Assembly (NCBI GenBank): GCA_944363575.1
Contig: CALVUJ010000024.1
Span: 144,107 to 208,106 of the forward strand
Reading direction: 5' to 3'
Length of the DNA: 64,000 nt
Source: an uncultured Bacilli bacterium
GTDB taxonomy: Bacteria > Bacillota_I > Bacilli_A > RFN20 > DUOF01
Shown here: piece by piece, positions 1,157-41,966 of the stretch
Layout: each line of letters begins with the position of its first letter
How positions within the stretch are numbered: the first letter of the stretch is position 1
Notes under the pieces: model-generated
Seen by the model: only the letters and a program-made list of their open reading frames with translations
Databases searched by the model: none
Told to the model about the DNA's origin: nothing
Made by a program: the position numbers and the translations under genes

Positions 1157-2170
1157 ATGATGCCTAAAAGAAGTGGATTACTTACATCGTTGTTAACTTT
1201 AATTATGCTAGTTACTTCACCAATGACTATATTTGCAAAAAATGTTTATGTTGGTGGGCAAAATATAGGAATTGAACTAAAAAGTAACGGGCTATTAATT
1301 TCAGGCACATATGATGTAAAACAACAAAACAAAACATACAATCCTAAAAGCAATAGTGATTTAAGAAAAGGTGATTTAATTATTAGCGTTGGAGAAGATA
1401 GGGTTAATTCATTAAATGATCTAGTAACTATTTTAAAAGAGAAATACGCTAATGAAGATAGTGCCCCAATAACTATTTTACGTGATGGAATAACATATAA
1501 GAAAAATTTAAAATTAATTAAAGATGAATTTGGTAATATTAAAACGGGGTTATTTATTAAAGAAAGACTATTAGGAATTGGAACAATCACTTATTACGAT
1601 CCAGAAAATAAGAGCTATGGTGCTTTAGGACACGAGATGAATGATGCTAGTTATAGCCCAAGCATTGATTTGTCTTTTGGAACTATTTATGCAAGTGATG
1701 TAACCTTAATTAGAAAAAGTAAAGATGGTGCACCAGGAGAAAAAATAGCATCCATAAATGAAGATGAAATACTAGGTGAAGTAACAAAGAACAATGAATA
1801 TGGCATTTATGGTAAATATACCGTTAATGTTGATGATTATGTTTCTTTAGAAGTAGGCGATAAAGATGATGTTAAACTTGGGAAGGCTCAAATATGGACG
1901 GTTATCCATGGAGATAAAGTAGAAAAATTTGATATAGAAATAGTGAGTGTAAAATCCCAAGAAAAACAAAGTATTAAAGGTATTTCTTTTAAAATAGTAG
2001 ATAAGAGGCTTTTAAATATAACAAATGGCATTGTAGCGGGAATGAGTGGCTCTCCAATTATCCAAGACAATAAAATTATAGGTGCAGTTACCCATGTTCT
2101 AGTTGATAAAGTAGAGTATGGTTATGGTATCTTTATTGAATGGATGCTAGAAGAGTCCAATAACTTATAG
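1157..2170 (+). CDS. spoIVB: SpoIVB peptidase (S55 family, PDZ domain plus serine peptidase)
   Basis: It has an N-terminal signal or anchor and a PDZ-like region (DLRKGDLIISVGEDRVNSL). The serine-peptidase motif GMSGSPI and a GALGHEM His region are present. The recN–spoIVB adjacency matches Bacillus and Clostridium gene order. Confidence 0.8.
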   Translation: MMPKRSGLLTSLLTLIMLVTSPMTIFAKNVYVGGQNIGIELKSNGLLISGTYDVKQQNKTYNPKSNSDLRKGDLIISVGEDRVNSLNDLVTILKEKYANEDSAPITILRDGITYKKNLKLIKDEFGNIKTGLFIKERLLGIGTITYYDPENKSYGALGHEMNDASYSPSIDLSFGTIYASDVTLIRKSKDGAPGEKIASINEDEILGEVTKNNEYGIYGKYTVNVDDYVSLEVGDKDDVKLGKAQIWTVIHGDKVEKFDIEIVSVKSQEKQSIKGISFKIVDKRLLNITNGIVAGMSGSPIIQDNKIIGAVTHVLVDKVEYGYGIFIEWMLEESNNL

Positions 2171-27580: not shown

Positions 27581-28902
27581 AATATTTCTCCTTTCATCTC
27601 ATAATCATTATCTTTTTCTATTAAATCAGTAATTATTACTTCTTTAAACTCATTTAATAAACTCTCATCACCAACACAACGAACTTTAATATAGTTACCG
27701 GTATAACCACTAACCATCCCACTTTCATTATCATAAGTTTCAAACAAAACTTCCCTTTTTTTATTTAAAAACTTACTATAATACTCTTTTCCTAATCTCT
27801 TAGACAAACTTATTAACTCATTAACCCTCTTTTTCTTAACCTCCCCACTAACCTGCTCTTTCATTTTAGAAGCTACTGTACCACTTCTACTAGAAAAAGG
27901 AAAAACATGCACTTTCGTAAACCCTATCTCTTGAATAGTTTTCATCGTTTCCTTAAATTCTTCTTCGCTTTCCCCTGGAAAACCTACGATTACATCCGTT
28001 GTTAAACTACAATCTTCCATATTTTCTCTAATTACCTGAACTCTCTTAGAAAAATAATCTAAATCATACTTTCTATTCATTTTCTTTAAAATAGTATCGC
28101 TCCCTGCTTGTAAAGGAATATGAAAATGATTAACAAAACACTTATGCTCTTTCATAATTTTTAAAACATGATCATTTAATTCATGTATCTCAATTGAAGA
28201 AATCCTAATTCTCGCCTTATCTTGCACTACATTAGCTAAATCCTCCAACAAATTTTCAAAACGATAATTAACAAAATCTAAGCCATAAGCACCAGTATGA
28301 ATACCAGTTAAAACAATCTCTTTATACCCATTATCTACTAATCTTTTAGCCTCTTTTAAAATTAAATCTTTATTTTTTGAACGAACACGTCCCCTAGTAT
28401 AAGGAATAATACAATAACTACAAAAATTATTACACCCATCTTCAATCTTTAAATATGCCCTAGTATTAGAAAAATAATCTACTACTTCTAAATTCTCAAA
28501 ATCTCTAAACGTATTACTATCTTCTATTAAAACAATTTGTTTTCTTTCTTTCTCAAACTCTTTAATTAACTCCACCATTTTATCCCGATACTTAGTACCT
28601 ATAACTATACTAACACCATCAATATTTACAACTTCATTAGCCTTAACTTGACTATAACACCCCATCACACACACAATAGCACCTGGATTACTATTAATCT
28701 CATGTCTAATCTTTTGCCTAGACTTACTATCACTAGTAGAGGTAACACTACACGTATTAACAACAATTACATCAGCCTTATCCTCACTTCTAACAAATCC
28801 TTCCTTAATTAACATATTGGATATTGCTTCACTCTCATAAGCATTAACTTTACACCCTAACGTAACAACCTTAAATTTTTTCATTAACTTCACCACACTC
28901 AT
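27577..28902 (-). CDS. mtaB: Radical-SAM tRNA methylthiotransferase MtaB (YqeV)
   Basis: An MTTase N-terminus is followed by the radical SAM motif CNNFCSYCIIP and a TRAM-like C-terminus. The position after rsmE matches the Bacillus yqeU–yqeV order. Confidence 0.8.
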   Translation of the reverse strand: MSVVKLMKKFKVVTLGCKVNAYESEAISNMLIKEGFVRSEDKADVIVVNTCSVTSTSDSKSRQKIRHEINSNPGAIVCVMGCYSQVKANEVVNIDGVSIVIGTKYRDKMVELIKEFEKERKQIVLIEDSNTFRDFENLEVVDYFSNTRAYLKIEDGCNNFCSYCIIPYTRGRVRSKNKDLILKEAKRLVDNGYKEIVLTGIHTGAYGLDFVNYRFENLLEDLANVVQDKARIRISSIEIHELNDHVLKIMKEHKCFVNHFHIPLQAGSDTILKKMNRKYDLDYFSKRVQVIRENMEDCSLTTDVIVGFPGESEEEFKETMKTIQEIGFTKVHVFPFSSRSGTVASKMKEQVSGEVKKKRVNELISLSKRLGKEYYSKFLNKKREVLFETYDNESGMVSGYTGNYIKVRCVGDESLLNEFKEVIITDLIEKDNDYEMKGEIL

Positions 28903-29632
28903 ACATATAACTAATTATACTCAATAAAAACAAAGGTGCCGTTTCACTTCTTAAAATTCTTTTACCTAAAGAAACAACCTCAAACCCATTATTAACCAAA
29001 TAATCAATCTCTCGCTGCTCAAACCCACCTTCAGGCCCAACCACTAAAGTAACACTATCAAACCTATTACTTAATAACTTATTTAATTTATTACACCCTT
29101 CATTACTAACATCTTCATACGCTACTATATTAAGTTTAGATTTATAATTTAATAAACTATCTTCATCACATATTCTCTCTACTTTAACTAATTTATTTCT
29201 TTTAGCTTGCTCACTAGCTTCTTTAGCTATCTTATTCCATCTCTCTACTTTCTTATCCTCTTTATCCCTAGAAATAACACTAATGCTTCTACATGCCTTA
29301 TAAGGAACAATAGTCCTAACACCTAACTCCGTAGCTTTCTGCACTACAAAATCAAATTTATCCCCCTTAGGCAAACCATAAATCAAAGTAACATCACAAT
29401 CTAATTCGTTATTAATAACTGTTTCCCTAACAATCTCCACATTAACTTTCTTATTAATAAATTTAATAACGCATTCATATATTTTATCTTCATAACTCAC
29501 ATAAACAAGATCATTATCTTTCATTCTCATAACTTTTTCGATATGAAATAAATCTTGATCATCAAGAACAAATCGATTATTAATCTTATCTTTAGCAAAA
29601 TATTGTTGCATACCATTCACCACCAATATCAT
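28871..29632 (-). CDS. rsmE: 16S rRNA (uracil1498-N3)-methyltransferase RsmE
   Basis: The C-terminal SPOUT motif is LVVGPEGGFEQREI...LGKRILRSETAPL. Confidence 0.8.
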   Translation of the reverse strand: MILVVNGMQQYFAKDKINNRFVLDDQDLFHIEKVMRMKDNDLVYVSYEDKIYECVIKFINKKVNVEIVRETVINNELDCDVTLIYGLPKGDKFDFVVQKATELGVRTIVPYKACRSISVISRDKEDKKVERWNKIAKEASEQAKRNKLVKVERICDEDSLLNYKSKLNIVAYEDVSNEGCNKLNKLLSNRFDSVTLVVGPEGGFEQREIDYLVNNGFEVVSLGKRILRSETAPLFLLSIISYMYECGEVNEKI

Positions 29633-29645
29633 ACCATATTAACGT

Positions 29646-29677
29646 AAAAAAAGCCCCTATAAAGAGGCCTTTTTTTA
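29646..29677 (-). terminator. Intrinsic terminator downstream of the hydrolase-membrane gene pair
   Basis: On the minus strand, aggcctctttataggggct is followed by ttttttt. Confidence 0.5.
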
Positions 29678-29693
29678 TAACTAATCTTTTAAA

Positions 29694-31805
29694 TTACATA
29701 GCTAATAAGTAAACAGTCGTATTAGCAATAGCAATCATTGTAAACAAGAAAGTATTAAAGAATGCACTAGTCCAAACATTGTTTGTTTTCTCATAGAACT
29801 TTCTAGCAAAAATAGCAGCAACAGCAAGTGAAGGAATTAATCCAAATAACAAGATAGGTTCTAATGATAAATCAGCAACACCAGCTGTACCTGTAATAAA
29901 TAACTTTCCATAATGCCATGCTAAGAACAACAACAATCCACCAATATTTAATGCCAATGCATATAAATAACCTTTCCATCCCTTAACATTCTTCGTATTA
30001 CTTGTAACCACAATACTATTAATGAAATAGTATACAAAATAAACAGGAACATAACGTAAGAATGATACAAAATGATGCCATTCAAATGATTTAATTGCAT
30101 AAACCCATAATCTAAAGTCAGTATTAAATATCCAACCAACTAAGAATACAATTGCATATAAACCAACGAACAAAATAACGGAAATAAGAAAAGCTAAACA
30201 AACTTGTTTAAATGAAGCCACTAAACCATAAGATTTAATAGTAACTTCATCTTTCCTTCTTACGATGTAATGAACTATGACTAAAGTAAGTAAAGCAATA
30301 CCAGCACTAATTAATGCCCAAAAACCAATACTACTAGCAGTAGGTGCATTATAATAATAACCAGTCTTTAAAATATCAAAATTATTTGCTAAATAACGAA
30401 CAAATAATGCTACAAAACTAATCATAATAGCGCCTTTAGTAATACCCCATGCTACTTCACGAGATTTAACAGACTCTTCTTCCGTTTTAAACATTCTAGA
30501 AACAAGATAAATAATCCAACCTGCTACTGCAAAAACAGTACATATATAGATAATATCTTCCATTAAATCAGAGAACATTGGTAGTTTCTCACCTGAACTA
30601 ATGAATGTAGGGAAATAATAAGCAGGAATAAGTGAAGTAACAAGTGCTACAACAGCTAATCCTATTTTCTTTCCTTTTGAAGTTTCTTTCTCTACTGGAA
30701 TAGCAGAGTCATCTGTTCTAACTTTAGCAAAGAAAGGAACTTTTAATAACATAGCCAAAGCAGGAACAATAGCTACTAATAAACCTATCAAAGCGATAAA
30801 TTCAAAAGTTTCCTTTAACCACCATGTTTGCCCACCCATATCATCTGCAGAAAATTCACTAGCTAAACCAGCCTTTTCTAATTGATATGAGAAAGCTTCT
30901 TCATAGAAATCAATCATATAACCAGTAGTTTCTGTAGAAAAATGATTCCAAGGATGGATTTCATAAGGAGTATAAATAACTCTTTGTCCATCAGTAGCAT
31001 TTACTTCATAAATTTTACCTGCTTCAAACTCTTCATTTTCACTCAAAGTATATCCAGCAGATTTCAAGAAGCTTTGACCTTCTTCTGTTTCAACATAATC
31101 TTTATAACCAACCGTATTTCTTCCAAGTTCACCATCATCACCAAAGAACTCATCAAAATGTGCAAGAATCATACCAGATGATCTAGTACCATACATATTA
31201 ATAATAGACTCATTAGTATACCTATAATCAGCACCAACAGTTAAACTTACAGCAATCTTTAAATGACCTTGAGTACCATAAGCCAAAGTATCATACATAA
31301 CAGCCATTTCTGTTGAGAACCCACCCATTGAGTGCCCACTAACAGCTATCATACCATTACCATTAGCATCTTTTAAAGTATATGGCTGATCATAAACCCA
31401 CTTTACAGCATCCCATAAAGATACAGTATAAAAAGCGAATTGTGCAGGAGTTGTCCAAGTAGACTCTCCATGATCATACATATCTAATGCTAATACAATA
31501 TAACCCCTCTTAGATAATTCAATCGCAGGAGCATCTTGCATTTCTTTTGAGTTTAGATACCCATGTGTTGTAACAATTACAGGACACGGATTATCTTTAT
31601 CACACCCTTTTGGAGTGTAAAGTAAACCTTCAAGTTGTCCCTCATATTCTTCGCCAAAAGCAGTACCTTCTGTTTCAAAAGCCACATTTTTAACTTTTAC
31701 AGAATATAAGGAAGTATTAACCATATTAGCTAACAAACTAAACAAAATCACGACACCCATACAAAGAGTAAATAACCATACAGGTGTTTTTAAAATTTTT
31801 TTCAT
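29694..31805 (-). CDS. Exported alpha/beta-hydrolase fused to a C-terminal polytopic membrane domain (paralog B)
   Basis: It has a signal anchor, the VTTHGYLNSKEMQDAPAIELSKRGYIVLALDMYDHG segment and the nucleophile elbow GHSMGG. About 8 or more hydrophobic helices follow from residue 330 onward. The AAGGGGG ribosome-binding site lies 17 nt after the upstream paralog. Confidence 0.6.
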   Translation of the reverse strand: MKKILKTPVWLFTLCMGVVILFSLLANMVNTSLYSVKVKNVAFETEGTAFGEEYEGQLEGLLYTPKGCDKDNPCPVIVTTHGYLNSKEMQDAPAIELSKRGYIVLALDMYDHGESTWTTPAQFAFYTVSLWDAVKWVYDQPYTLKDANGNGMIAVSGHSMGGFSTEMAVMYDTLAYGTQGHLKIAVSLTVGADYRYTNESIINMYGTRSSGMILAHFDEFFGDDGELGRNTVGYKDYVETEEGQSFLKSAGYTLSENEEFEAGKIYEVNATDGQRVIYTPYEIHPWNHFSTETTGYMIDFYEEAFSYQLEKAGLASEFSADDMGGQTWWLKETFEFIALIGLLVAIVPALAMLLKVPFFAKVRTDDSAIPVEKETSKGKKIGLAVVALVTSLIPAYYFPTFISSGEKLPMFSDLMEDIIYICTVFAVAGWIIYLVSRMFKTEEESVKSREVAWGITKGAIMISFVALFVRYLANNFDILKTGYYYNAPTASSIGFWALISAGIALLTLVIVHYIVRRKDEVTIKSYGLVASFKQVCLAFLISVILFVGLYAIVFLVGWIFNTDFRLWVYAIKSFEWHHFVSFLRYVPVYFVYYFINSIVVTSNTKNVKGWKGYLYALALNIGGLLLFLAWHYGKLFITGTAGVADLSLEPILLFGLIPSLAVAAIFARKFYEKTNNVWTSAFFNTFLFTMIAIANTTVYLLAM

Positions 31806-31822
31806 TATTTACCCCCTTTCAA

Positions 31823-34129
31823 TTACATTGATAACAAATAAATAGTAGTATTAGCCACAGTAATTAATGTAAATAACATTGAATTCAAGAAGGCAGCAAC
31901 CCACACATTATTTGTCTTTTCATAAATCTTCTTAGCAAAAACAGCAGCTAAAGCAAGAGATGGTATTAAACCATACAATAAAATTGGTTGTAATGCAAGT
32001 GTAGGAAAAGCACCAACACCCGTTAAGAATAACTTACCATAATGCCATATTAAGAATAAGATTAATCCACCTGCATTTAATGCCATTGCATATAAATAAC
32101 CTTTAAAGCCCTTAACATCTTTAGTATTAACAGCTACAACAATAGCATTAATAAAGTAATAGATAAAGAATACTGGAGTATACTTTAAGAATGCCACAAA
32201 GTGATGAGCACCAAATGTTTTAACAGCATATACCCATAACCTAAAGTCTGTTTTAAAGATTAAATCAACTAAGAATACAATTACATAAATACCTACAATA
32301 ACAGCAAGAGCTAAAACAAATGCAATACCAACTTGTTTTAACGATGCCTTTAATCCATAAGACTTAATTGTAGCCCCATCTTTTTTATTTACAGTATAGT
32401 GAGTAATTACTAAAGAAAGTAAAGAAATACATGCACTAATTAAAGCCCAATAACCAATTGAATTAGTCGTAGGAGCATTCCACCAATATCCTTCTTTTAA
32501 AATATCTCCTGCATTAACACACAAATACCTTAAAGCTAAAGCAATAAGAGCAACAACTAAGCAACTCTTTGTAACTTTCCAAGCATAAGCACTTGCTTTG
32601 TTAGTAGTCTCTTCTCCTTTACTAACACGTGACACTATAACAGCAACCCATAAAGCTACAATTAATACAAATAAGATATAAATAATACCTTCAGCTATTC
32701 TAGTGAAAATACTCAAATCAGCTGATTTTGTAATAAATGTAGGGAAATAGTAAGCAGGAATAAGCGATACTAATAATGAACTTATCACTAAGCCAATCTT
32801 CTTACCTTTATTTGCCTTCTTATTATCTTCACTAACTTCTTCTTCACTAGTAACAGTCTCACCTTCAACAGTAACAACACTTGCAAAGAAAGGAACCTTT
32901 AATAATAAAGTAATCATAGGAATTATTGCTAAAAATAAACCTATCATAGCAACAAACTCAAAACCTTCCTTTAACCACCAAGTTTGTCCTCCACCACTAG
33001 TTAAATCTAACGCATTAAAATCTAAATCAGCATGTAATCCCATCTGATATTCAAATGCTTCATTGTAAAATTCAATCATATAAGCAGTAGATTCTGTAGA
33101 AAAATGATTTTGTGGATGTGTTTCATAAGGTGTATAAATAACTCTTTGACCAGTATATGTCTCACCAGTTGTTACATAATTACCATCATCATCTAATTTA
33201 ACATCATAAAACACCCCAGCAGCATATTCTTCATCAACACCTAAATTAGTACCATTACCTAAATAGTAACGGCCAGTATCAGTATCAACAAAATCTTTAT
33301 AAACAACTGTATCATTTGGGAAATTATAGCCTGAACTAGAATCACCAGCTACAATTTCACTACCTCTATCTAAAAAGAAAAATTCATCAAAATGACCAGC
33401 AATTGTACCACTAGTACGATCTGCATAAGTTGCTAAAATTTCTTCATGAGATTTAATAACTCTCATTTCTTCAGGAGTTCTAGCATCAGGTGACTCCATT
33501 CTTTTAAAGTCAGCACCTGCAGCTAAATTAATAGCAATCTTACGATGTGCCGTAGTAGGATCAGCAGCTACCATTTCTTGATAGTTCAATTCATCCCAAT
33601 AAATAGCAAGATGAGATGAAAAACCACCCATTGAATGACCACTAACAGCAATCATACCATCACCATCAGCAGCCTTTAATACATAATCTTTTTCATACAT
33701 TACCTTTACAGCATCCCACAAAGCAGTTTGCCAGAAAGTAAATGTAGCAGGAGTATCCCAAGTAGAATCTCCATGATCATACATGTCTAATGCTAATACA
33801 ATATAACCCCTCTTAGATAATTCAATCGCAGGAGCATCTTGCATTTCTTTTGAGTTTAGATAACCATGTGTTGTAATAATTAATGGACATGGCTTATCGT
33901 TACTACAAGTATCAGGCATATATAACAAACCAGAAAGTTTACCATTATTATTACCAGTCTCTAATGTAACTTCATCAACATCAACTTTATAAAATGAAGT
34001 ATTAGCCATTTGAGCAAAAATGCTTCCTAGTAATACAAGAATCATCGCCAATGATAATAACCATGTTGGTTTTTTAAAATTTTTCATAAAACTTTTAAAA
34101 CGACATTCTTTTTTTACATTTTCTTCCAT
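31823..34129 (-). CDS. Exported alpha/beta-hydrolase fused to a C-terminal polytopic membrane domain (paralog A)
   Basis: It has the same architecture as paralog B. The 35-aa TTHGYLNS...MYDHG block is identical and GHSMGG is present. The internal ATG at 34087 aligns with the start of paralog B and is an alternative start. Confidence 0.6.
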   Translation of the reverse strand: MEENVKKECRFKSFMKNFKKPTWLLSLAMILVLLGSIFAQMANTSFYKVDVDEVTLETGNNNGKLSGLLYMPDTCSNDKPCPLIITTHGYLNSKEMQDAPAIELSKRGYIVLALDMYDHGDSTWDTPATFTFWQTALWDAVKVMYEKDYVLKAADGDGMIAVSGHSMGGFSSHLAIYWDELNYQEMVAADPTTAHRKIAINLAAGADFKRMESPDARTPEEMRVIKSHEEILATYADRTSGTIAGHFDEFFFLDRGSEIVAGDSSSGYNFPNDTVVYKDFVDTDTGRYYLGNGTNLGVDEEYAAGVFYDVKLDDDGNYVTTGETYTGQRVIYTPYETHPQNHFSTESTAYMIEFYNEAFEYQMGLHADLDFNALDLTSGGGQTWWLKEGFEFVAMIGLFLAIIPMITLLLKVPFFASVVTVEGETVTSEEEVSEDNKKANKGKKIGLVISSLLVSLIPAYYFPTFITKSADLSIFTRIAEGIIYILFVLIVALWVAVIVSRVSKGEETTNKASAYAWKVTKSCLVVALIALALRYLCVNAGDILKEGYWWNAPTTNSIGYWALISACISLLSLVITHYTVNKKDGATIKSYGLKASLKQVGIAFVLALAVIVGIYVIVFLVDLIFKTDFRLWVYAVKTFGAHHFVAFLKYTPVFFIYYFINAIVVAVNTKDVKGFKGYLYAMALNAGGLILFLIWHYGKLFLTGVGAFPTLALQPILLYGLIPSLALAAVFAKKIYEKTNNVWVAAFLNSMLFTLITVANTTIYLLSM

Positions 34130-34340
34130 TAAAGAAAATTCCCTCCTTTTTATTTATATTTCCCAAAAAAATAAATAAAATAGCAAATTTTCCCTCCCTT
34201 CCTTTGTTATTTATTTTTCTGCAAAACAACAAAAGACACATAAAACAAAACTTAACTACAAATTAATTATAAAAAATAAAAAGCTTTTACTCAACTAAAT
34301 AAACCTTTTTTCTAGATATTTTTCTATTTATTTCCCAAAT

Positions 34341-34363
34341 AAAAAAAAGCAACATATGTTGCT
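34341..34363 (-). terminator. Intrinsic terminator of the TasA/SipW/AAA+ operon
   Basis: The perfect palindrome agcaacatatgttgct is followed on the minus strand by tttttttt. It lies 3 nt after the stop codon of the 83-aa ORF. Confidence 0.55.
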
Positions 34364-34366
34364 CCC

Positions 34367-34618
34367 TTAACCATGTAACCCGTTACTTTGCCTTTGCATA
34401 TCCTCAACCACAATATCAAAAATATCACCAATCGAGGCACAATATTTCAAAACTTCCCATGGAGTATTCGTATGAAAATGAATTTTAATCAAGTTTTCAT
34501 CCCCCACCACTAACAAACAATCACCTTCAATATTATTTCTAATATAATCACTAATATCATCTTCAGACAAATTATTTCCCTCTATCAATAACTGCGTATC
34601 ATACTTATACTCTAACAT
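34367..34618 (-). CDS. Small 83-aa protein, last gene of the operon
   Basis: An AGGAG ribosome-binding site is coupled to the upstream gene. The segment CLLVVGDENLIKIHFHTNTPW resembles the C-terminal domain of DAK2/FakA-type proteins. This is a weak, memory-based similarity. Confidence 0.4.
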   Translation of the reverse strand: MLEYKYDTQLLIEGNNLSEDDISDYIRNNIEGDCLLVVGDENLIKIHFHTNTPWEVLKYCASIGDIFDIVVEDMQRQSNGLHG

Positions 34619-34629
34619 TCTATCACTCC

Positions 34630-36288
34630 TTATTTACTATTCTTCTCTAATAAAACTTGTTTTCTTTTAGCTCTCTTCTCTTTATTAACCTTATTCATAG
34701 CCTCTACTTTTTTATCAATCTCTTTTATCTTAACCTCATAAACTTTAATTTTTTTCTTATACTTTACAATATTCTCTTTCCATGCCACTTGCATCTTCTT
34801 TAGATTAACAATTTCTTTTTTATTATCTACAACATTAACTTTATTATTAATTTCCTGCTTAAGCATATAAATAGTACCATGACTCTTTTCAATATTACTA
34901 TCACAAATCTTAATTTTATTCATTAAAACATTAATTCTATTATTAAAAATATATTTACGATCTCTAACCTTCTTAACAGCCTTAGACTCTTGCTCAATAA
35001 TAGCCTTTTCTTTTCTAATACGAGCCCTCCTCATCATCTCTTTACGAGCTTCACTCTTTTGCTTCAACAACTCATCAATTTCCTTTTGTTTCAGCCTAAT
35101 ATATTCCCTTTTATCATTTTCTATTTCCTTCAATTCTTGCTCTTTTTGCCTATGTTTTTCAATAGTAAGACTAAGCTGCTCCTTCAAATAAGCCTTCTCC
35201 TTAATTAACTCTTCTAATTGTTTAGCCTTATCTTCACCAAATAAATATGGATCAATCTCTTCTCTTACTTCCACATTCTCATTATTATCCATAACTTTTT
35301 TAATCTTTTTAATTTTATTATTTTTAATAACTAAATTAATAGATTTCTTTAATGCCTCATTATACTTTTCATTATCTTTTTGACAAGCATCAACTGCAGA
35401 ATACATATACATTATAGCCTTATTCATCTTCTTCTTATACTTATCAGTTAACTCAATAGGAATCTTCTCAACCCTAAAATCCAAAACCATACCCTCATAA
35501 TTACTAATATAATTCCATAAATTATAACAAATATTATAATTAGGCTCCTTAGTAATAATATTTGTTCTTTTAATTGCTCCTACTAAAGGCCTAGCCTCTG
35601 CTAACCTTTTCATAAACATACTACCATAAACTCTACCTAATGTTCTTCTAATCCATGCTACTCTTCTAAACAAATCATCCATCTTCATAATATCATCTTT
35701 ATTAAAATTATCCGTAACAATATCTAAATTCATCTCAAAATTAACCCTAGAATTCTTAATATTAAAAGTCGTTTTATTCTTTAAAGCCGTCAAAGAAGAA
35801 AAATCAATATCATCTAAAAACTCACTAAATCTCCTATCAAAAAAAGTAGCTAAATTTAAAATTAATGACTTAATAAAAATATTCTCATATAAAACAAAAT
35901 TATCATCAGATAACCCCGTCAAAATCCTTGTAGGAACAACCATTCCATCTTCATCAACTCTACTAATCAAATGAGAATGACTAGATAAATGCTTAATAGA
36001 AGCCGTACCCGTTTTCCTAGCTAACTCAACGGGAATAATTTCATAATCGGTCTTTAAAAACTGCTTAGGTGCTCTAGTAATAATATCAAGTGCTACTAAA
36101 CCATTCTCAATCATTTTCAAACACTCTTCATCATATTCCCTAACAACAACTTTAGTTATATGGTCAATTTTAATATCTGCTTTATCAAATCCATTACTAA
36201 ACAATGCATAAAAAGTATCATCTTTACCAACATTATCATGACGACGACTAAGTTTTTCCCAAAATCTCTTAATAATATCCACAGCCAT
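34630..36288 (-). CDS. Protein with a ~330-aa N-terminal domain and a long Lys/Glu-rich coiled coil; putative partner (McrC position) of the McrB-like GTPase
   Basis: It is translationally coupled, with an AGGAGG ribosome-binding site 6 nt after the AAA+ gene. Residues 330 to 552 are highly charged heptad-like repeats. No clear PD-(D/E)xK motif was seen. Confidence 0.5.
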   Translation of the reverse strand: MAVDIIKRFWEKLSRRHDNVGKDDTFYALFSNGFDKADIKIDHITKVVVREYDEECLKMIENGLVALDIITRAPKQFLKTDYEIIPVELARKTGTASIKHLSSHSHLISRVDEDGMVVPTRILTGLSDDNFVLYENIFIKSLILNLATFFDRRFSEFLDDIDFSSLTALKNKTTFNIKNSRVNFEMNLDIVTDNFNKDDIMKMDDLFRRVAWIRRTLGRVYGSMFMKRLAEARPLVGAIKRTNIITKEPNYNICYNLWNYISNYEGMVLDFRVEKIPIELTDKYKKKMNKAIMYMYSAVDACQKDNEKYNEALKKSINLVIKNNKIKKIKKVMDNNENVEVREEIDPYLFGEDKAKQLEELIKEKAYLKEQLSLTIEKHRQKEQELKEIENDKREYIRLKQKEIDELLKQKSEARKEMMRRARIRKEKAIIEQESKAVKKVRDRKYIFNNRINVLMNKIKICDSNIEKSHGTIYMLKQEINNKVNVVDNKKEIVNLKKMQVAWKENIVKYKKKIKVYEVKIKEIDKKVEAMNKVNKEKRAKRKQVLLEKNSK

Positions 36289-36303: not shown

Positions 36304-38175
36304 TTATACTTGTTTTAATAATTCATTAATATACTCAATAGAATCTGCAAAAACACCCTTACCAAACTCTTTATCCAAAACATTTAATAAGCCTTTTAAT
36401 TCATTCTTAATAAATGAAATATTTAAAGCTTCAAGTTTATGTAAAATCTTTCTAGTTAATAAATGGTCAACTGCTTCATATTCACTACCACCACATCCCA
36501 TATAACAAGGAACAAATCTCTTTATTTGCTTCATAATACGGTTACCAAAAGAAATCTTAAAGTTAGTAATCATATACTTATCTACATTAGCTAACTTTTG
36601 TAAAGTCTCTTCACTAATCGCATACTTAGTACAAGCATCATCAAATAACTTCTCAAAATATTCACTAGTCATTGTAATACTATCAGCATCAAACTCAGGC
36701 TCAAATGCTACTGTCTTTTTATTTAAAGACATTGACATCGCACGGTCATAAACTTTATCGGTAATAAGGAAAGTAGAATCATCATTATTCGCCGTACCTA
36801 AAAACCAAACATTTTTAGGAATTAGCAACTTACCGTGATCTAACAAAATAGGATCACCCTCCATAGTAGTATTAATAATTTCTATAATCCATTCATCTCT
36901 ATTAGGCATTTCCATAATAGACAAGAAATCAGCAAAATAATACTCAATACGAGCTAAGTTCATTTCATCAAGTACAAGTATCATTGGCTCTTTATGTTTC
37001 GCACATGTATATAGTTCCTCCAAAAAAGCCGACTCATTAAACTTCTTTGTAAATTCATTTAAATAACCCAATAATTCAGATCTATCTTTCCAGGATGGTT
37101 GAACTGCTACAATTGGTGTCCTACTCTTAAAAAACTTACCAAAAGCATAAGGAAGTGAAGTTTTACCAGTACCAGATATACCCTCCAAAATAGCAAAGTG
37201 AGTGGTACCTAACCCCGCAAAAAACAATGCCAAAGTTCTAAAACTATAGTACAACTTAAGCTTACCTGCTGCAAAGTTTCTAAATCTTTTAACTAATTGC
37301 TCTAAAGTAATTGTTTTTTCTTCTTCACTCATTTCAGGAAAAGAATAATTACGATAATCAAAATCAATTGTAATAAGCTTAGGAAAACGAGCTTTCTCTA
37401 GTACTTCTTTAGGAAGTCTCTCCTTACCATCTTCTTCATCTACTACTTCAACTTCTTCTACAGAATCATCTTCCTTATCTTCGCTATCAACAGGAATTGG
37501 ATACCCATTAACATCAAATAAAAACTTCCCTTTTTTATCTTTTTTAAACTCAATAAGAGGAATAGGTTTCTTATTCTCATCTAATAAAACATTACCCTCT
37601 TCATCTTTTTTATACTCTAACTCAATCTCAGGAAAACCATTCTTACCAAATTTAGGTCTCCCTTTTTTATCAACTTTAAATTTAAAACCAACAGTCTTAA
37701 CTCCATCAGGATTAAGAATAGCCTCTTCTGCTCTCTTTCTCGCATTTTCCATATTCTTAAGATCTTCTTTAGTAGGAGCATACCCTAACTCTGCAACCTT
37801 TAAAGATAAAAGTTGACTCCTCTCATCCATCAAATCAATAACCTTATTATTCAAAGTTTCAATTTCCCTTAACAAAACAATCTTATCTTTAACCTTTCTT
37901 TTAGCAATATATCTTCTTTTAGAAACCCTAACAATTAAATAAACCAAAGCACCAATTGCCGCTACAAAAACTAAAATAGAAAGAACAAATAAAACCCAAC
38001 CTAGAAAATCAAAACCATCTGAATACAAATCAAAAACAGACTTATAATAAGAAAAATTACCAATAATAGCTCGCCATACAGAAACTAAAAAATCAATTAT
38101 TAACTTAAAAAAATCAATAATATCCTCCCATAATACTTTAAGCAATCTCCCAATATACTTACCAAACGCTGCCAT
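36304..38175 (-). CDS. Membrane-anchored McrB-like AAA+ (AAA_5) GTPase with an N-terminal transmembrane segment, a coiled coil and a Lys-rich linker
   Basis: The Walker A motif is GISGTGKTS. The McrB-type Walker B motif is ILVLDEMNLAR. The McrB signature FLGTANNDDSTF is present. The ATG directly abuts the sipW stop codon (TAAATG). Confidence 0.65.
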   Translation of the reverse strand: MAAFGKYIGRLLKVLWEDIIDFFKLIIDFLVSVWRAIIGNFSYYKSVFDLYSDGFDFLGWVLFVLSILVFVAAIGALVYLIVRVSKRRYIAKRKVKDKIVLLREIETLNNKVIDLMDERSQLLSLKVAELGYAPTKEDLKNMENARKRAEEAILNPDGVKTVGFKFKVDKKGRPKFGKNGFPEIELEYKKDEEGNVLLDENKKPIPLIEFKKDKKGKFLFDVNGYPIPVDSEDKEDDSVEEVEVVDEEDGKERLPKEVLEKARFPKLITIDFDYRNYSFPEMSEEEKTITLEQLVKRFRNFAAGKLKLYYSFRTLALFFAGLGTTHFAILEGISGTGKTSLPYAFGKFFKSRTPIVAVQPSWKDRSELLGYLNEFTKKFNESAFLEELYTCAKHKEPMILVLDEMNLARIEYYFADFLSIMEMPNRDEWIIEIINTTMEGDPILLDHGKLLIPKNVWFLGTANNDDSTFLITDKVYDRAMSMSLNKKTVAFEPEFDADSITMTSEYFEKLFDDACTKYAISEETLQKLANVDKYMITNFKISFGNRIMKQIKRFVPCYMGCGGSEYEAVDHLLTRKILHKLEALNISFIKNELKGLLNVLDKEFGKGVFADSIEYINELLKQV

Positions 38176-38709
38176 TTATAACTCCTCCTTTTTCTCACTA
38201 ATCATCTTAATAAACTCATATAACGTTATACAAAACATCACGCCTAATGGACCAATAACCAATAACCAATAACCTAAACTAGTCCTTGAAAACCTTATAA
38301 CATACCCTAATAATGGTATCCTAAAGCCTCTATATACACCAATTATCTCACTAGCACTTACCATTTTATCATCAATATTAGGATTATTAACCCCTTTTGT
38401 AACATATTTATCTTCATAAACATCAACAATCTCATGAGTAACAATCTTCTCTTCACTATCAATAATAGTAATAAAACTAATAACATCACCAATTTCATAT
38501 TTCTCTTTTTTATTCTTATCAATAGCAATATAATCCCCATCTTTAATAAGCGGCTCCATACTACTGCCATTAACATCTAAAAAAGAATACCTACCAAACT
38601 TACTAACCCCATAATCATTACTCATAAAACTAATGATTAATAAACCTAATACGAAAATGATAAAAATGCTAATAAAACAACCACTAATAATTTTAAATAC
38701 TCTTTTCAT
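38176..38709 (-). CDS. sipW: Signal peptidase I, SipW type (archaeal/ER-type)
   Basis: The catalytic motif is VNGSSMEP. N-terminal and C-terminal transmembrane helices are present. It sits directly downstream of a gene with a SipW-cognate signal peptide. Confidence 0.75.
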   Translation of the reverse strand: MKRVFKIISGCFISIFIIFVLGLLIISFMSNDYGVSKFGRYSFLDVNGSSMEPLIKDGDYIAIDKNKKEKYEIGDVISFITIIDSEEKIVTHEIVDVYEDKYVTKGVNNPNIDDKMVSASEIIGVYRGFRIPLLGYVIRFSRTSLGYWLLVIGPLGVMFCITLYEFIKMISEKKEEL

Positions 38710-38718
38710 ACTATCACC

Positions 38719-39513
38719 CTAGCTATCATCTCCTTCTCTATCAATGGCCTCAAAACGCACATTAACCCGCAACTTACAATCAAAAATAGAAATATCACAA
38801 TTAACATCATCACTCTCTAACCAAACAAAAACATCCATTTTAGAAATTTTATTAGCATATAAATCTAATAACAAAACATCATCACTAGACCCTGTATATC
38901 CTAAATTATTAAAAGTTTCATATTTTAATAATCCCCCTTTATAAGACGAATTATCTTTAATCTCTGTCGCATACACCTCAGTATTAATTGGTGCATAACT
39001 AATTTCAATACCTGAACTAGTAGGAGTTTCAACAGTAGTATAAGAAACAAAACCAACCCTAAGAGACTTAACAATCTTATTTTTTTGCTCATTAGTAAAG
39101 ATACTAGACTCATCAACAATATCAATAACAGTCCCCGAAATTGAACCCGCTAAATACAAATCTTTATCATCGCTAGCCGAAAAATACAAACTAAAAGAAA
39201 TATACCCATCAGTCGCCGTATTACTACCATCAAACAAACTAATATAATTATCACCAACAGTACCAAGCAATGGCTTTAAAGTAACTTCATTATCGCCTAT
39301 CATCTCATTAAAACTAATACTATCTTTAAAAGTTCCCTTAACCCCACTAGTAGAAACCATCACATTTTCTTGTGTGGCTACATTAAAAACTAAATTATCA
39401 ACGCGTGGATGTAACTGCTCAGAAAAATAAGCATAGGTTGCACTAGCGAAAGTAACAAAAGAAACAATTAATAAACTTAATAAAAAAACCATCTTCTTTT
39501 TCATAACTTTCAC
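38719..39513 (-). CDS. TasA/camelysin-family secreted protein with a SipW-cognate signal peptide
   Basis: The signal peptide is MKKKMVFLLSLLIVSFVTFASATYAYFSEQ (AYFS-D/E class). The C-terminus CKLRVNVRFEAI resembles the TasA motif KLQFSFEAT. Confidence 0.65.
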   Translation of the reverse strand: MKVMKKKMVFLLSLLIVSFVTFASATYAYFSEQLHPRVDNLVFNVATQENVMVSTSGVKGTFKDSISFNEMIGDNEVTLKPLLGTVGDNYISLFDGSNTATDGYISFSLYFSASDDKDLYLAGSISGTVIDIVDESSIFTNEQKNKIVKSLRVGFVSYTTVETPTSSGIEISYAPINTEVYATEIKDNSSYKGGLLKYETFNNLGYTGSSDDVLLLDLYANKISKMDVFVWLESDDVNCDISIFDCKLRVNVRFEAIDREGDDS

Positions 39514-39516
39514 CCC

Positions 39517-40191
39517 TTATAAAACACCCAAAACATCAAAAGACATTGAAAGTGAAATAGACCCACCTATTTTATCATTCGTACAATCAACATCAGCACC
39601 CTCAATCCAAATAACTAACGAATACTTTGTAACTTCATCAGGTTCAAAATCAGTAACAGTATGACTAACAATAACTTTATCATTTTCAAAAGCAACAGTT
39701 CCACTCTCAGGTTCATTAGTTAAACTATTTTTCTTCGCATAAGTCGCATTTAAAAGAGAATTACTATCCTCATCTATAACATACAACTTAACCCTAATAG
39801 CCTCATCCAAATCATTACTTTTATTTTCAACATTCAAACTCATTGAATAATCCAAATTTTCAATTCCACTATTAAAAACATAAAAAGTATAAGCAATATA
39901 ATTATCACCGCTACTATCACCATCAATTAAATCAGTAATCGTAGGAACATAATCTTCTGTAGTATCCCATGCTTCCATAATTGAAGGGCCATACATCTTA
40001 CCCTTAGGATCACTCAAAGTTTTAGACTCTGATAAAGACAAACACTTTCTAAGACTACTACGATCAACAAAAATAGTTAAATTGCCTTGACGGTTACTAG
40101 TAACAGCAATAACAATTAAAAAGAATATTGAACATAATAAAACGGAGATTAAAATAGGTCTTATTTTTTTCCAATAAAATCGCTTACTCAC
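39517..40191 (-). CDS. TasA-like paralog with an uncleaved-type N-terminal membrane anchor (TapA-like position)
   Basis: An N-terminal transmembrane segment is present. The C-terminal segment WIEGADVDC...SISLSMSFDVLG is shared with the downstream TasA-like protein (WLESDDVNC). It is the first gene of the operon. Confidence 0.5.
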   Translation of the reverse strand: MSKRFYWKKIRPILISVLLCSIFFLIVIAVTSNRQGNLTIFVDRSSLRKCLSLSESKTLSDPKGKMYGPSIMEAWDTTEDYVPTITDLIDGDSSGDNYIAYTFYVFNSGIENLDYSMSLNVENKSNDLDEAIRVKLYVIDEDSNSLLNATYAKKNSLTNEPESGTVAFENDKVIVSHTVTDFEPDEVTKYSLVIWIEGADVDCTNDKIGGSISLSMSFDVLGVL

Positions 40192-40822: not shown

Positions 40823-40843
40823 AACTCACTTATTCAGTGAGTT
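40823..40843 (-). terminator. Hairpin terminator overlapping the dnaJ stop codon
   Basis: The hairpin aactcact-tattc-agtgagtt is followed on the minus strand by tttttatttg. Confidence 0.45.
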
Positions 40844-41966
40844 ATTTATTTTTAAAAGCTTTTTTAAATTTTTCAAAAATAGAATCTCCTTGCTTACTTT
40901 CTAAAGATTTAAGTTTCACATACAAATCTCTTTCTTCCTTAGATAACTTAGAAGGAACTTTAATATCCAAAATAACGTATTCATCACCAATACTAGTACT
41001 TCGCAAATCCTTAATACCTTTACCCTTGATTCTTAATTTTTGACCATTTTGAATACCAGCAGGCACTTCTACTTTCACATCCCCATGAATAGTAGGAACA
41101 TCAATCTTACACCCTAAAGCAGCATCAACATAAGAAATAGGAACACTAACGTACACATCATTATTTTGTCTTTCAAAATATTTATGTTTAGAAACAATAA
41201 TCTCAACATACAAATCTCCATTAGGCCCTCCATTAATACCTTTTTCGCCTTTACCCGTAATTCTTAATTGTTGACCAGAATTAATCCCTGCAGGAACACT
41301 AACATCAACATTAACTTTCTTACGCACATATCCTTCACCCTTACAATCAGGACACTTATTTTTAACAACTTTTCCTTTACCTTTACAATAAGGACAAGTT
41401 GTTTGACTTTCAAAAGTACCAAATATTGTCCTTTGTTGAGTTCTAGTCACACCACTACCATGACAATGTGAACATGTTTCAACATCCGTTCCATTAAGTG
41501 CACCAGTTCCCCTACATGAAGTACATCTCTCATCAATAGTTAAAGAAATAACTTTCTTAACACCAAAGGCAGCTTCTAAAAAACTAATTTCCATCTGCAA
41601 ATATTTATCTTCACCTTGCATAGGACCTGAACTTCTTGATTTTTTACCCCCACCAAAGAAAGAAGAAAAGATATCACCAACATCAAAATCACTAAAGTTA
41701 AAGCCACCAAAGCCTCCACCCATGCCACCATTAGCATTAGGATCAACCCCAGCATGACCATAACGATCGTATAAATTTTTCTTTGTCTCATCACTCAATA
41801 CTTCATAGGCTTCTTGAACTTCCTTAAACTTTTCTGGAGCATCCGCAGACTTGTTAATATCCGGATGATATTTTTTAGCAAGTGTTCGATAAGCTTTTTT
41901 GATTGTATCATGATCGGCATCCTTAGAAACCCCAAGCACCTCATAATAATCTCTTTTTTCAGCCAT
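40842..41966 (-). CDS. dnaJ: Chaperone DnaJ
   Basis: The J domain has KKYHPD. A G/F-rich region and four CxxCxGxG zinc-finger repeats are present. Confidence 0.9.

Follow-up and report, generated by a model that had tools for sequence, protein, structure and literature searches.

INTRODUCTION

The closest structural analogue of the proteins described here is the SagB-SpdC complex of Staphylococcus aureus (PDB 6u0o). SpdC acts as a non-catalytic scaffold that binds the single transmembrane (TM) helix of the extracellular hydrolase SagB; its cavity opens to the membrane, and a groove runs from this cavity to the SagB active site (bioRxiv 10.1101/2020.05.21.109470). The authors of that work predicted that other bacterial CAAX-protease homologues, too, would be scaffolds (bioRxiv 10.1101/2020.05.21.109470).

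The subject of this report is a tandem pair of genes at positions 29694–34129 of a 64-kb stretch of DNA from an uncultured Bacilli bacterium (contig CALVUJ010000024.1; 'the window', to which all positions refer). We call them A768 and B703, after the lengths of their products in amino acids (aa). Together with several hundred relatives in other Bacillota, these proteins look like a covalent version of the SagB-SpdC design with a different enzyme. The likeness lies in an extracellular hydrolase, a single N-terminal TM helix and a non-catalytic, CAAX-like polytopic partner. The differences are that the parts belong to one polypeptide; that the enzyme is a predicted alpha/beta-hydrolase serine esterase, whereas SagB is a GH73 glucosaminidase; that the membrane domain has 10 predicted helices instead of the 8 of SpdC, to which it has no sequence similarity; and that the genetic context is glycerol catabolism rather than cell-wall synthesis, in a family that occurs in wall-less bacteria as well.

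Fusions of the OatA/PatB type, in which an acyltransferase-3 membrane domain is joined to an extracytoplasmic SGNH esterase or transferase, resemble the family in concept, with catalysis at the membrane surface. They differ in the folds of both halves and in domain order, which is the opposite, and they are biosynthetic O-acetyltransferases that use cytoplasmic acetyl-CoA, a link of which the present family gives no sign. Our literature search found no description of the present fusion, of any CPBP-esterase fusion, or of an esterase in the operon slot of glpF. If the analogy with SagB-SpdC is sound, what is new is the covalent union of hydrolase and CAAX-like scaffold, the class of enzyme, and the physiological context; the hydrolase/scaffold design itself is known.

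The context bears on glycerol regulation. In Bacillus subtilis, GlpP bound to glycerol 3-phosphate (G3P) disrupts a terminator in the leaders of its target genes, and so activates glpD, glpFK and glpTQ; the GlpP regulon thus includes glpQ and glpT (PMC9604022).

RESULTS

Architecture of the two proteins

A768 lies upstream and B703 downstream, co-directional on the minus strand. Both open reading frames (ORFs) have exactly the boundaries given in the original prediction, which was made from the DNA letters alone and which had called the genes adjacent paralogs with a shared architecture: a signal anchor, a hydrolase domain, and eight or more C-terminal TM helices. From end to end, the two proteins share 55% identity (E=0); taken by part, the figure is 58% for the hydrolase and 61% for the membrane domain. 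Their features, several of them predicted, are as follows.

31823–34129, minus strand: gene A768 (ORF); TM anchor at the N-terminus, then an exported alpha/beta-hydrolase whose cap is the longer of the two, then a CPBP-like domain of 10 TM helices
33623–33640, minus strand: A768 GHSMGG nucleophile elbow (Ser166; aa 164–169)
33386–33388, minus strand: A768 Asp248
33116–33118, minus strand: A768 His338
31853–32977, minus strand: A768 membrane domain (about aa 385–759), 61% identical to that of B703
29694–31805, minus strand: gene B703 (ORF); architecture as A768, cap shorter
31716–31784, minus strand: B703 TM1 (aa 8–30), uncleaved N-in/C-out anchor helix; pLDDT (per-residue model confidence) ~97 in the full model
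30873–31700, minus strand: B703 extracytoplasmic alpha/beta-hydrolase (aa 36–311)
31320–31337, minus strand: B703 GHSMGG nucleophile elbow (Ser159; aa 157–162)
31152–31154, minus strand: B703 Asp218
30954–30956, minus strand: B703 His284
29724–30830, minus strand: B703 10-helix membrane domain (aa 326–694), CPBP/CAAX-protease-like fold without the protease motifs

A conserved, predicted serine esterase

The hydrolase domain had been put at about 320 aa in both proteins; this fits A768 (~325 aa), and not B703, where it is shorter (~275 aa). The GHSMGG elbow is present in both, as first noted. Conservation was judged from a family alignment of 65 sequences, later extended to 81 with 79 homologues from species-representative genomes. 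In B703 numbering, H81-G82, G157-H-S159-M-G161, D218 and H284 are invariant in 81 of the 81, and Ser166, Asp248 and His338 of A768 align with invariant columns. The domain has the canonical alpha/beta-hydrolase core fold, with the G-x-S-x-G motif, the order Ser-acid-His, and an HG oxyanion motif. Pfam and NCBIfam return weak, generic alpha/beta-hydrolase matches for A768 and B703, confined to roughly residues 60–200, in the first ~100 aa of the domain. The family profile, run against sequences in the PDB, matches the feruloyl esterase Est1E (E 4.5e-8) in an alignment that spans both the elbow and the region of the catalytic His, and the top neighbours of the full-length model in fold searches are carboxyl-esterases, with peptidases lower. 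Because triad, HG motif and elbow are invariant, and because of the match to Est1E, the domain is predicted to be a catalytically competent serine carboxyl-esterase. The class of its substrate cannot be read from homology.

The known enzymes that come nearest are small lidded carboxyl-esterases, such as PET46 (8b4u), the Chloroflexus '202' enzyme (7qjm), Est1E (2wtm) and LbFAE (7z2u), and monoacylglycerol lipases (7ozm, 6ax1). All are soluble and only 13–20% identical, and substrate specificity is not transferable from any of them. Unlike them, members of the family are integrated in the membrane at both ends, and they have an invariant THGYLNSKEMQDAPAIELSKRG segment of their own.

What chiefly sets A768 apart from B703 is several insertions that fall after the elbow and before the catalytic His. 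In the alpha/beta-hydrolase fold this region usually forms the cap, and since the insertions fall in the presumed cap, the comparison suggests that the two proteins have different substrate pockets, and hence specificities.

A CAAX-protease-like membrane domain without protease motifs

Hydropathy plots display one N-terminal and 9–10 C-terminal hydrophobic segments, and the AlphaFold2 model of B703 (mean pLDDT 90.3; pTM, its global counterpart, 0.90) resolves the C-terminal part into 10 helices, in agreement with the predicted anchor and eight or more TM helices. The N-terminus is rich in K, and the K/R-rich loops of B703 (354–376, 520–531 and 605–609) fall on the same side as this N-terminus in the model; over the 65 sequences, K+R averages 9.2 in the predicted cytoplasmic loops vs 4.2 in those predicted to be external. 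The ectodomain, for its part, is strongly acidic. By the positive-inside rule and the acidity of the ectodomain, the esterase is placed outside, as originally proposed; the predicted topology is N-terminus inside, esterase outside, ten helices, and C-terminus outside. The very high pLDDT of TM1 and its invariant small residues (S23 and A26) suggest an uncleaved helix that packs into the bundle.

When the full-length model was used for fold searches, matches to the esterase part crowded out the rest, and the membrane domain was therefore modelled separately. Its best matches are CPBP proteins; no transporter or channel fold was matched. Sequence methods are silent on this likeness. Pfam and NCBIfam give no match to the membrane half of the window proteins, nor does Pfam to that of ten diverse relatives at E<=10; the PF02517 profile matches neither the window proteins at E<=1 nor ten diverse membrane domains at E<=10; and no CPBP chain is among the matches of the profile search of PDB sequences. 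(Matches to Kv1.2 and YfkE in that search, at E about 2e-3 to 2e-2, were discounted as hydrophobic-helix hits without support from the fold search.) The earlier view that no named family could be assigned is thus borne out: what profile matches there are concern the hydrolase part. The CPBP/Abi/Rce1 intramembrane metalloproteases (PF02517) are further set apart by their catalytic motifs, EExxxR, FxxxH and HxxxN/D. The membrane domain of the family has no invariant Glu-Glu, nor indeed any invariant Glu or His, and no invariant His/Asn pair. One motif survives as an apparent relic, F574xxxH578, in which F574 is invariant and position 578 is His in 54 of 81 sequences and Gln in 23. The domain, going by model and motifs together, appears CPBP-like in fold and is not a protease of that family. 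This fold escaped the original prediction.

What is invariant in the membrane domain (Q326, W328, K331, W496, D563, R565, F574, Y585, P587, Y632, N695 and T696) maps mostly to the outer-leaflet side of the predicted helices, towards the esterase. An exhaustive HMMER search with the membrane domain alone (E<=1e-3, clustered at 50% identity) gave 468 clusters, and almost all matches lie at the C-terminus of proteins of 600–800 aa; an N-terminal hydrolase is present in nine of ten distant carriers. From this, the fusion of hydrolase and membrane domain is judged to be essentially obligate.

A widespread family that travels with glycerol genes

Full-length homologues, about 670–790 aa long and 40–72% identical, number 837 among the scored candidates, and occur in at least 530 species-representative genomes, nearly all of Bacillota: Paenibacillus, Saccharibacillus, Cohnella, many Bacillaceae, Clostridia, Erysipelotrichales, Acholeplasma and Izemoplasmatales, with one Fervidobacterium. 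Public databases name them 'alpha/beta (fold) hydrolase', 'dienelactone hydrolase family protein', 'pimeloyl-ACP methyl ester carboxylesterase' or simply 'hypothetical'.

Gene neighbourhoods were compared for the 80 best matches to B703, a sample that is phylogenetically non-independent and that yielded 78 loci for counting. ORFs were called simply in 6-kb flanks, neighbours were clustered, and identities were confirmed by Pfam; the family gene is referred to below as X. Glycerol-catabolism genes are the sole strongly recurrent neighbours of X: GlpK is near it in 24 loci, GlpP and GlpD in 22 each, a PocR/AraC regulator in 18, a Pyr_redox_2 plus DUF1667 pair in 14, DhaK in 13 and GldA in 11. 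Glycerol genes lie within 6 kb of X in 47 of the 78 loci, directly adjacent in 41, and adjacent and co-directional in 35. At least eight different arrangements, serving three glycerol pathways, are found across Bacillaceae, Paenibacillaceae, Clostridia, Erysipelotrichales, Acholeplasmatales/Izemoplasmatales and the one Fervidobacterium, among them these:

glpP-X-glpK-glpD: Bacillaceae (loci L036, L041, L048, L054, L060 and L061)
X-glpP-glpK-glpD: a variant order of the same genes
glpP-glpD-FADox-DUF1667-glpK-X: Izemoplasmatales-like genomes
glpP and X divergent: Acholeplasma
pocR / gldA-dhaK-X: Paenibacillus and Saccharibacillus
pocR-dhaK-X: Clostridia
X-glpK-glpD: Fervidobacterium

In the first of these, X occupies the position of glpF in the glpP-glpF-glpK-glpD region of B. 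subtilis, and no MIP/GlpF-like ORF occurs within 6 kb of X in any of the 78 loci. In a neighbour-joining tree the glycerol contexts are spread across all major clades except the window's own. The remaining recurrent clusters (SDR, AKR, ABC transporter, GNAT, GGDEF, GH42, MarR and Dus) share no consistent theme, and the recurrent neighbours include no lipid or fatty-acid genes (FakB/DegV, acyl-CoA enzymes), no envelope-synthesis, peptide, bacteriocin or immunity genes, and no glpQ or glpT cluster.

The Fervidobacterium locus (L066; Fervidobacterium sp. UBA5837, Thermotogota) has X together with glpK, glpD and the FAD-oxidoreductase/DUF1667 pair, which suggests that X moved between phyla in company with a glycerol operon.

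A GlpP-type leader in front of X

The upstream regions of X (250–350 nt) in eight Bacillaceae loci (the six listed above, with L030 and L042) can be aligned with the leaders of glpD in the respective genomes. The elements in common are a TTGACA-17-TATACT promoter, an invariant AAGTTAAT box 5–7 nt after the -10 hexamer, a long hairpin and a T-run; the arms of the hairpin read GGAGACACA/TGTGTCTC in the leader of X and GAGAGACC/GGTCTC in that of glpD, and the predicted folding energies are -24 to -33 kcal/mol. The leader belongs to no Rfam family, with only sub-threshold chance matches in that database. An exact AAGTTAAT box precedes X in 28 of the 78 loci. Fourteen of these, from Erysipelotrichaceae, Acholeplasmataceae, Cohnella, Bhargavaea and others, are among the 31 loci without nearby glycerol genes; the number expected there is ~1.3 (background 0.043 per 540 nt). 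When genes and box are combined, 61 of the 78 loci tie X to glycerol or G3P. Judged by its neighbours and leader, then, X belongs, in most lineages, to the glycerol/G3P regulon, where it takes the place of glpF.

X resembles GlpF (MIP/aquaporin) in operon slot, in the type of its GlpP/G3P-responsive terminator leader, and in being the only membrane protein of the operon. It is unlike GlpF in that its sequence and fold are unrelated, paired NPA motifs and the six-helix MIP hourglass are absent, and there is a catalytic ectodomain. At the level of sequence, the match in slot and leader shows regulation like that of glpF, not identity as a channel.

The glycerol-regulon context is the main functional clue to the family. 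It was absent from the original prediction, and is visible only in the relatives: upstream of A768 there is neither a AAGTTAAT box nor a GlpP-type hairpin, and the annotated parts of the window contain no glycerol genes, the genes there being housekeeping ones (recN, spoIVB, addAB, yqeH, nadD, metG, deoB and dinB). The window pair has evidently become uncoupled from glycerol genes, and its regulation appears to have changed.

The gene pair in the window

The signals around the pair, on the minus strand, are as follows.

34266–34294: promoter-like site TTGAGT-17-TATAAT upstream of A768; best-scoring site, 10/12, consensus match only
34142–34146: GGAGG ribosome-binding site (RBS) of A768, sequence read
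31806–31822: spacer between A768 and B703, 17 nt, TTGAAAGGGGGTAAATA, read directly
31812–31818: AAGGGGG RBS of B703, inside the 17-nt spacer
29646–29675: predicted intrinsic terminator hairpin 3' of B703; dG -16.8 kcal/mol, z -3.27, followed by a U-run
33787–33863 (A768) and 31484–31560 (B703): identical 77-nt run

The 17-nt gap and the separate RBS of B703 are as first described. The candidate promoter lies downstream of the terminator that closes a small (83-aa) ORF, and the terminator 3' of B703 separates it from rsmE. Since A768 has a candidate promoter and its own RBS, and a terminator follows B703, the pair is, by prediction, a self-contained bicistronic transcription unit. The 77-nt run is the longest identical stretch between the genes; it lies in the region of the HG/oxyanion motif and covers YLNSKEMQDAPAIELSKRGYIVLAL. 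Third codon positions are 100% identical within it vs 65% overall, and it is therefore probably a small gene-conversion tract. It also accounts for the fact that two 'terminator-like' strings of the plus strand, at 31525 and at 33828, are the same. An Rfam scan of 29400–34700 gave no match. The G+C content of the window is 28%.

Neighbours and synteny

The genes around the pair that are mentioned below are these:

40842–41966, minus strand: dnaJ
38176–40191, minus strand: SipW-type signal peptidase with the 264-aa and 224-aa proteins
36304–38175, minus strand: 623-aa P-loop protein; hits PDC-M26A, a candidate defence model of PADLOC (E 1e-38), and shows a weak match to McrB
34630–36288, minus strand: 552-aa protein with a K/E-rich coiled-coil-like tail; no family match
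34367–34618, minus strand: 83-aa ORF, FakA/YloV middle domain only (Pfam FakA-like_M, E 6e-20; partial NCBIfam matches to YloV and FakA)
34343–34368: terminator of the 83-aa ORF
28871–29632: rsmE, adjoining B703
1157–2170, plus strand: SpoIVB homologue (Peptidase_S55 plus PDZ)

On the minus strand, hrcA-grpE-dnaK-dnaJ lie upstream of the interval that holds the pair, and rsmE-mtaB-deoC-hflX downstream of B703. The pair had been described as sitting exactly between dnaJ and rsmE, in the position taken by prmA in Bacillus. It does lie in that interval and adjoins rsmE. The interval, however, is ~11.2 kb long, and seven further ORFs, which from the dnaJ side encode proteins of 119 aa, 224 aa and 264 aa, SipW, and proteins of 623 aa, 552 aa and 83 aa, put dnaJ ~6.7 kb away from the pair.

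From this position an accessory insertion had been surmised. That no longer stands, at least as a recent event, because the block p224-p264-SipW-p623-p552-[A]-B-rsmE-mtaB-deoC-hflX is syntenic in two related metagenome-assembled genomes of uncultured gut Bacilli. The nearest relative (L005) carries both copies (762 and 694 aa), and the other (L006) a single, B-type copy (719 aa). The genomic comparison thus makes the pair a stable feature of the lineage, with a clade-specific tandem duplication. Duplication as a trait of the family at large was considered and rejected, since L005 alone among the 78 genome loci has a pair; several close metagenomic relatives also appear to be paired, with A- and B-type proteins seemingly on shared contigs.

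Some of the neighbours deserve mention in their own right. The 83-aa ORF directly upstream of A768, which the public contig annotates as a gene, may be a remnant of a gene, or else a small protein in which the domain stands alone; its link to fatty-acid kinase is intriguing beside a putative lipid esterase. The 623-aa and 552-aa proteins are syntenic in L005 and L006 at 77–86% identity, better conserved than the esterases themselves, which is unusual for a defence island. The signal peptidase is 177 aa long, of the SipW/archaeal type in NCBIfam, and the 264-aa and 224-aa secreted proteins beside it, both with signal peptides, match no Pfam, NCBIfam or PADLOC family. This layout of two secreted proteins and SipW is conserved in L006, and resembles the tapA-sipW-tasA fibre operon of B. 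subtilis. The SpoIVB homologue indicates that this gut Bacilli lineage retains sporulation genes.

DISCUSSION

A possible function

We propose, tentatively and at a little under an even chance, that X is a surface esterase that deacylates membrane-partitioned glycerol esters and feeds glycerol catabolism; the class of substrate is taken from the operon and regulon context. The N-terminal helix and the C-terminal 10-helix domain would keep the esterase pressed to the outer surface of the cytoplasmic membrane. In the manner of SagB-SpdC, the membrane domain may bind an amphipathic glycerol ester of the outer leaflet by its acyl tail (mono- or diacylglycerol are candidates, possibly a lysolipid) and offer the ester bond to Ser159. 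Hydrolysis would release free glycerol, which could enter GlpK/GlpD or GldA/DhaK and give rise to the inducer, G3P, and a fatty acid that might become available for incorporation. In the gut Bacilli of the window, X has been decoupled from the glycerol genes and duplicated, and the copies differ mainly in the cap. That the membrane domain serves as a scaffold or feeds lipid to the enzyme is something we infer from the likeness to SpdC, and the glycerol-ester function of the window's own pair is transferred by homology, at 40–46% identity with all of the invariant residues kept. A lipid rather than a cell-wall substrate is favoured by the presence of the family in the wall-less Acholeplasma and Izemoplasmatales lineages. 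The earlier suggestion that the enzyme acts on a lipid or a glycolipid-linked substrate agrees with this, in view of the SpdC-like membrane fold and the link of the family to glycerol catabolism.

Several considerations weigh against this proposal. The window pair is without glycerol neighbours and without a GlpP-type leader, and is no more than 46% identical to the glycerol-linked members. The 78 loci, drawn as they are from the best matches to B703, are not independent of one another. For every member of the family esterase activity is a prediction, and a groove or cavity, like the packing of TM1, is presumed. The glpF slot would also fit a role in transport, which a pure scaffold does not explain.

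Alternative explanations

That last point leads to the main alternative, which we regard as unlikely: the membrane domain conducts glycerol, or a small intact ester, and displaces GlpF, and the esterase frees glycerol where the conduit opens, so that hydrolysis is coupled to uptake. This would account more directly for the displacement of glpF. X does stand in the exact position of glpF, behind a leader of the glpFK/glpD type, as the only membrane protein of these operons and with no MIP-like ORF within 6 kb in the 78 loci, and some near-invariant polar residues (N603/T604 and N676) are on the cytoplasmic side. The fold searches, on the other hand, point to CPBP proteins, which are not known to transport, and to no transporter or channel; in the model, most of the invariant polar residues cluster on the outer side rather than marking out a route through the whole membrane; glpF may lie elsewhere in these genomes; and glycerol also crosses bilayers passively. 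A single-chain machine that combines both ideas, with the CAAX-protease-fold domain taking glycerol esters from the outer leaflet and passing glycerol inward, seems to us distinctly unlikely. We would say much the same of a phospholipase or lysophospholipase that deacylates exogenous or turnover phospholipids to glycerophosphodiesters for GlpQ/GlpT and thence G3P, so supplying the missing first step of phospholipid scavenging under GlpP control. The structural and topological evidence fits this just as well, the inclusion of glpQ and glpT in the GlpP regulon of B. subtilis (PMC9604022) speaks for it, and there are weak profile matches to PAF-acetylhydrolase and to the phospholipases VolA/Pla-1. 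These matches are far below threshold, however; the adjacent glpK or gldA-dhaK need free glycerol, not G3P or diesters; and glpQ/glpT are missing from the recurrent neighbours.

Maintenance of the cell's own envelope is a very unlikely explanation, though the window itself lends it some colour. In this account the esterase deacylates an endogenous glycolipid or lipoglycan anchor or a lipoprotein, or removes ester substituents, and has no nutritional role in the window organism. SpdC, the nearest analogue of the membrane domain, acts on a lipid-linked envelope polymer, and the genes of the window lineage sit among housekeeping genes with no glycerol genes or GlpP leader. Against this stand the 61 of 78 loci linked to catabolic glycerol genes or their regulon, the occurrence of the family in lineages that have no wall, and the want of envelope-synthesis genes among the recurrent neighbours. 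Barely credible, finally, is the idea that X cleaves exported peptides as a serine peptidase in the membrane (S9/S15/S33 type) to which a degenerate CPBP domain is joined. Weak Pfam matches to Peptidase_S15, Hydrolase_4 (S33) and Peptidase_S9 hint at such an activity, and CPBP proteins often have to do with the processing of peptides or bacteriocins. The matches are marginal, though, and cover just the generic beta3-to-elbow core; carboxyl-esterases outrank peptidases as structural neighbours; no peptide, bacteriocin or immunity genes are nearby; and the glycerol context would be left unexplained.

Significance

Several hundred species of Bacillota, from soil Paenibacillus and halophilic Bacillaceae to gut Erysipelotrichales and wall-less relatives of Acholeplasma, carry X under generic labels. 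The GlpP-type leader, found across Bacillaceae, Erysipelotrichaceae and Acholeplasmataceae, could serve to map GlpP regulons. If the combined esterase and permease were correct, GlpF would be dispensable in hundreds of Bacillota species, and the CPBP fold would acquire its first role in transport or substrate channelling, in the first covalent hydrolase-CPBP machine. If, as we prefer, X is a surface glycerol-ester esterase, it would fill an unexplained step in Gram-positive bacteria, from environmental or host acylglycerols to GlpK/GlpD or GldA/DhaK. It would also furnish a second example, covalent and of another enzyme class, of CAAX-protease homologues that act as scaffolds and deliver membrane-embedded substrates to extracellular hydrolases. 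For the small-genome gut Bacilli of the window, duplicated copies with different caps could then help to scavenge the products of dietary lipid digestion.

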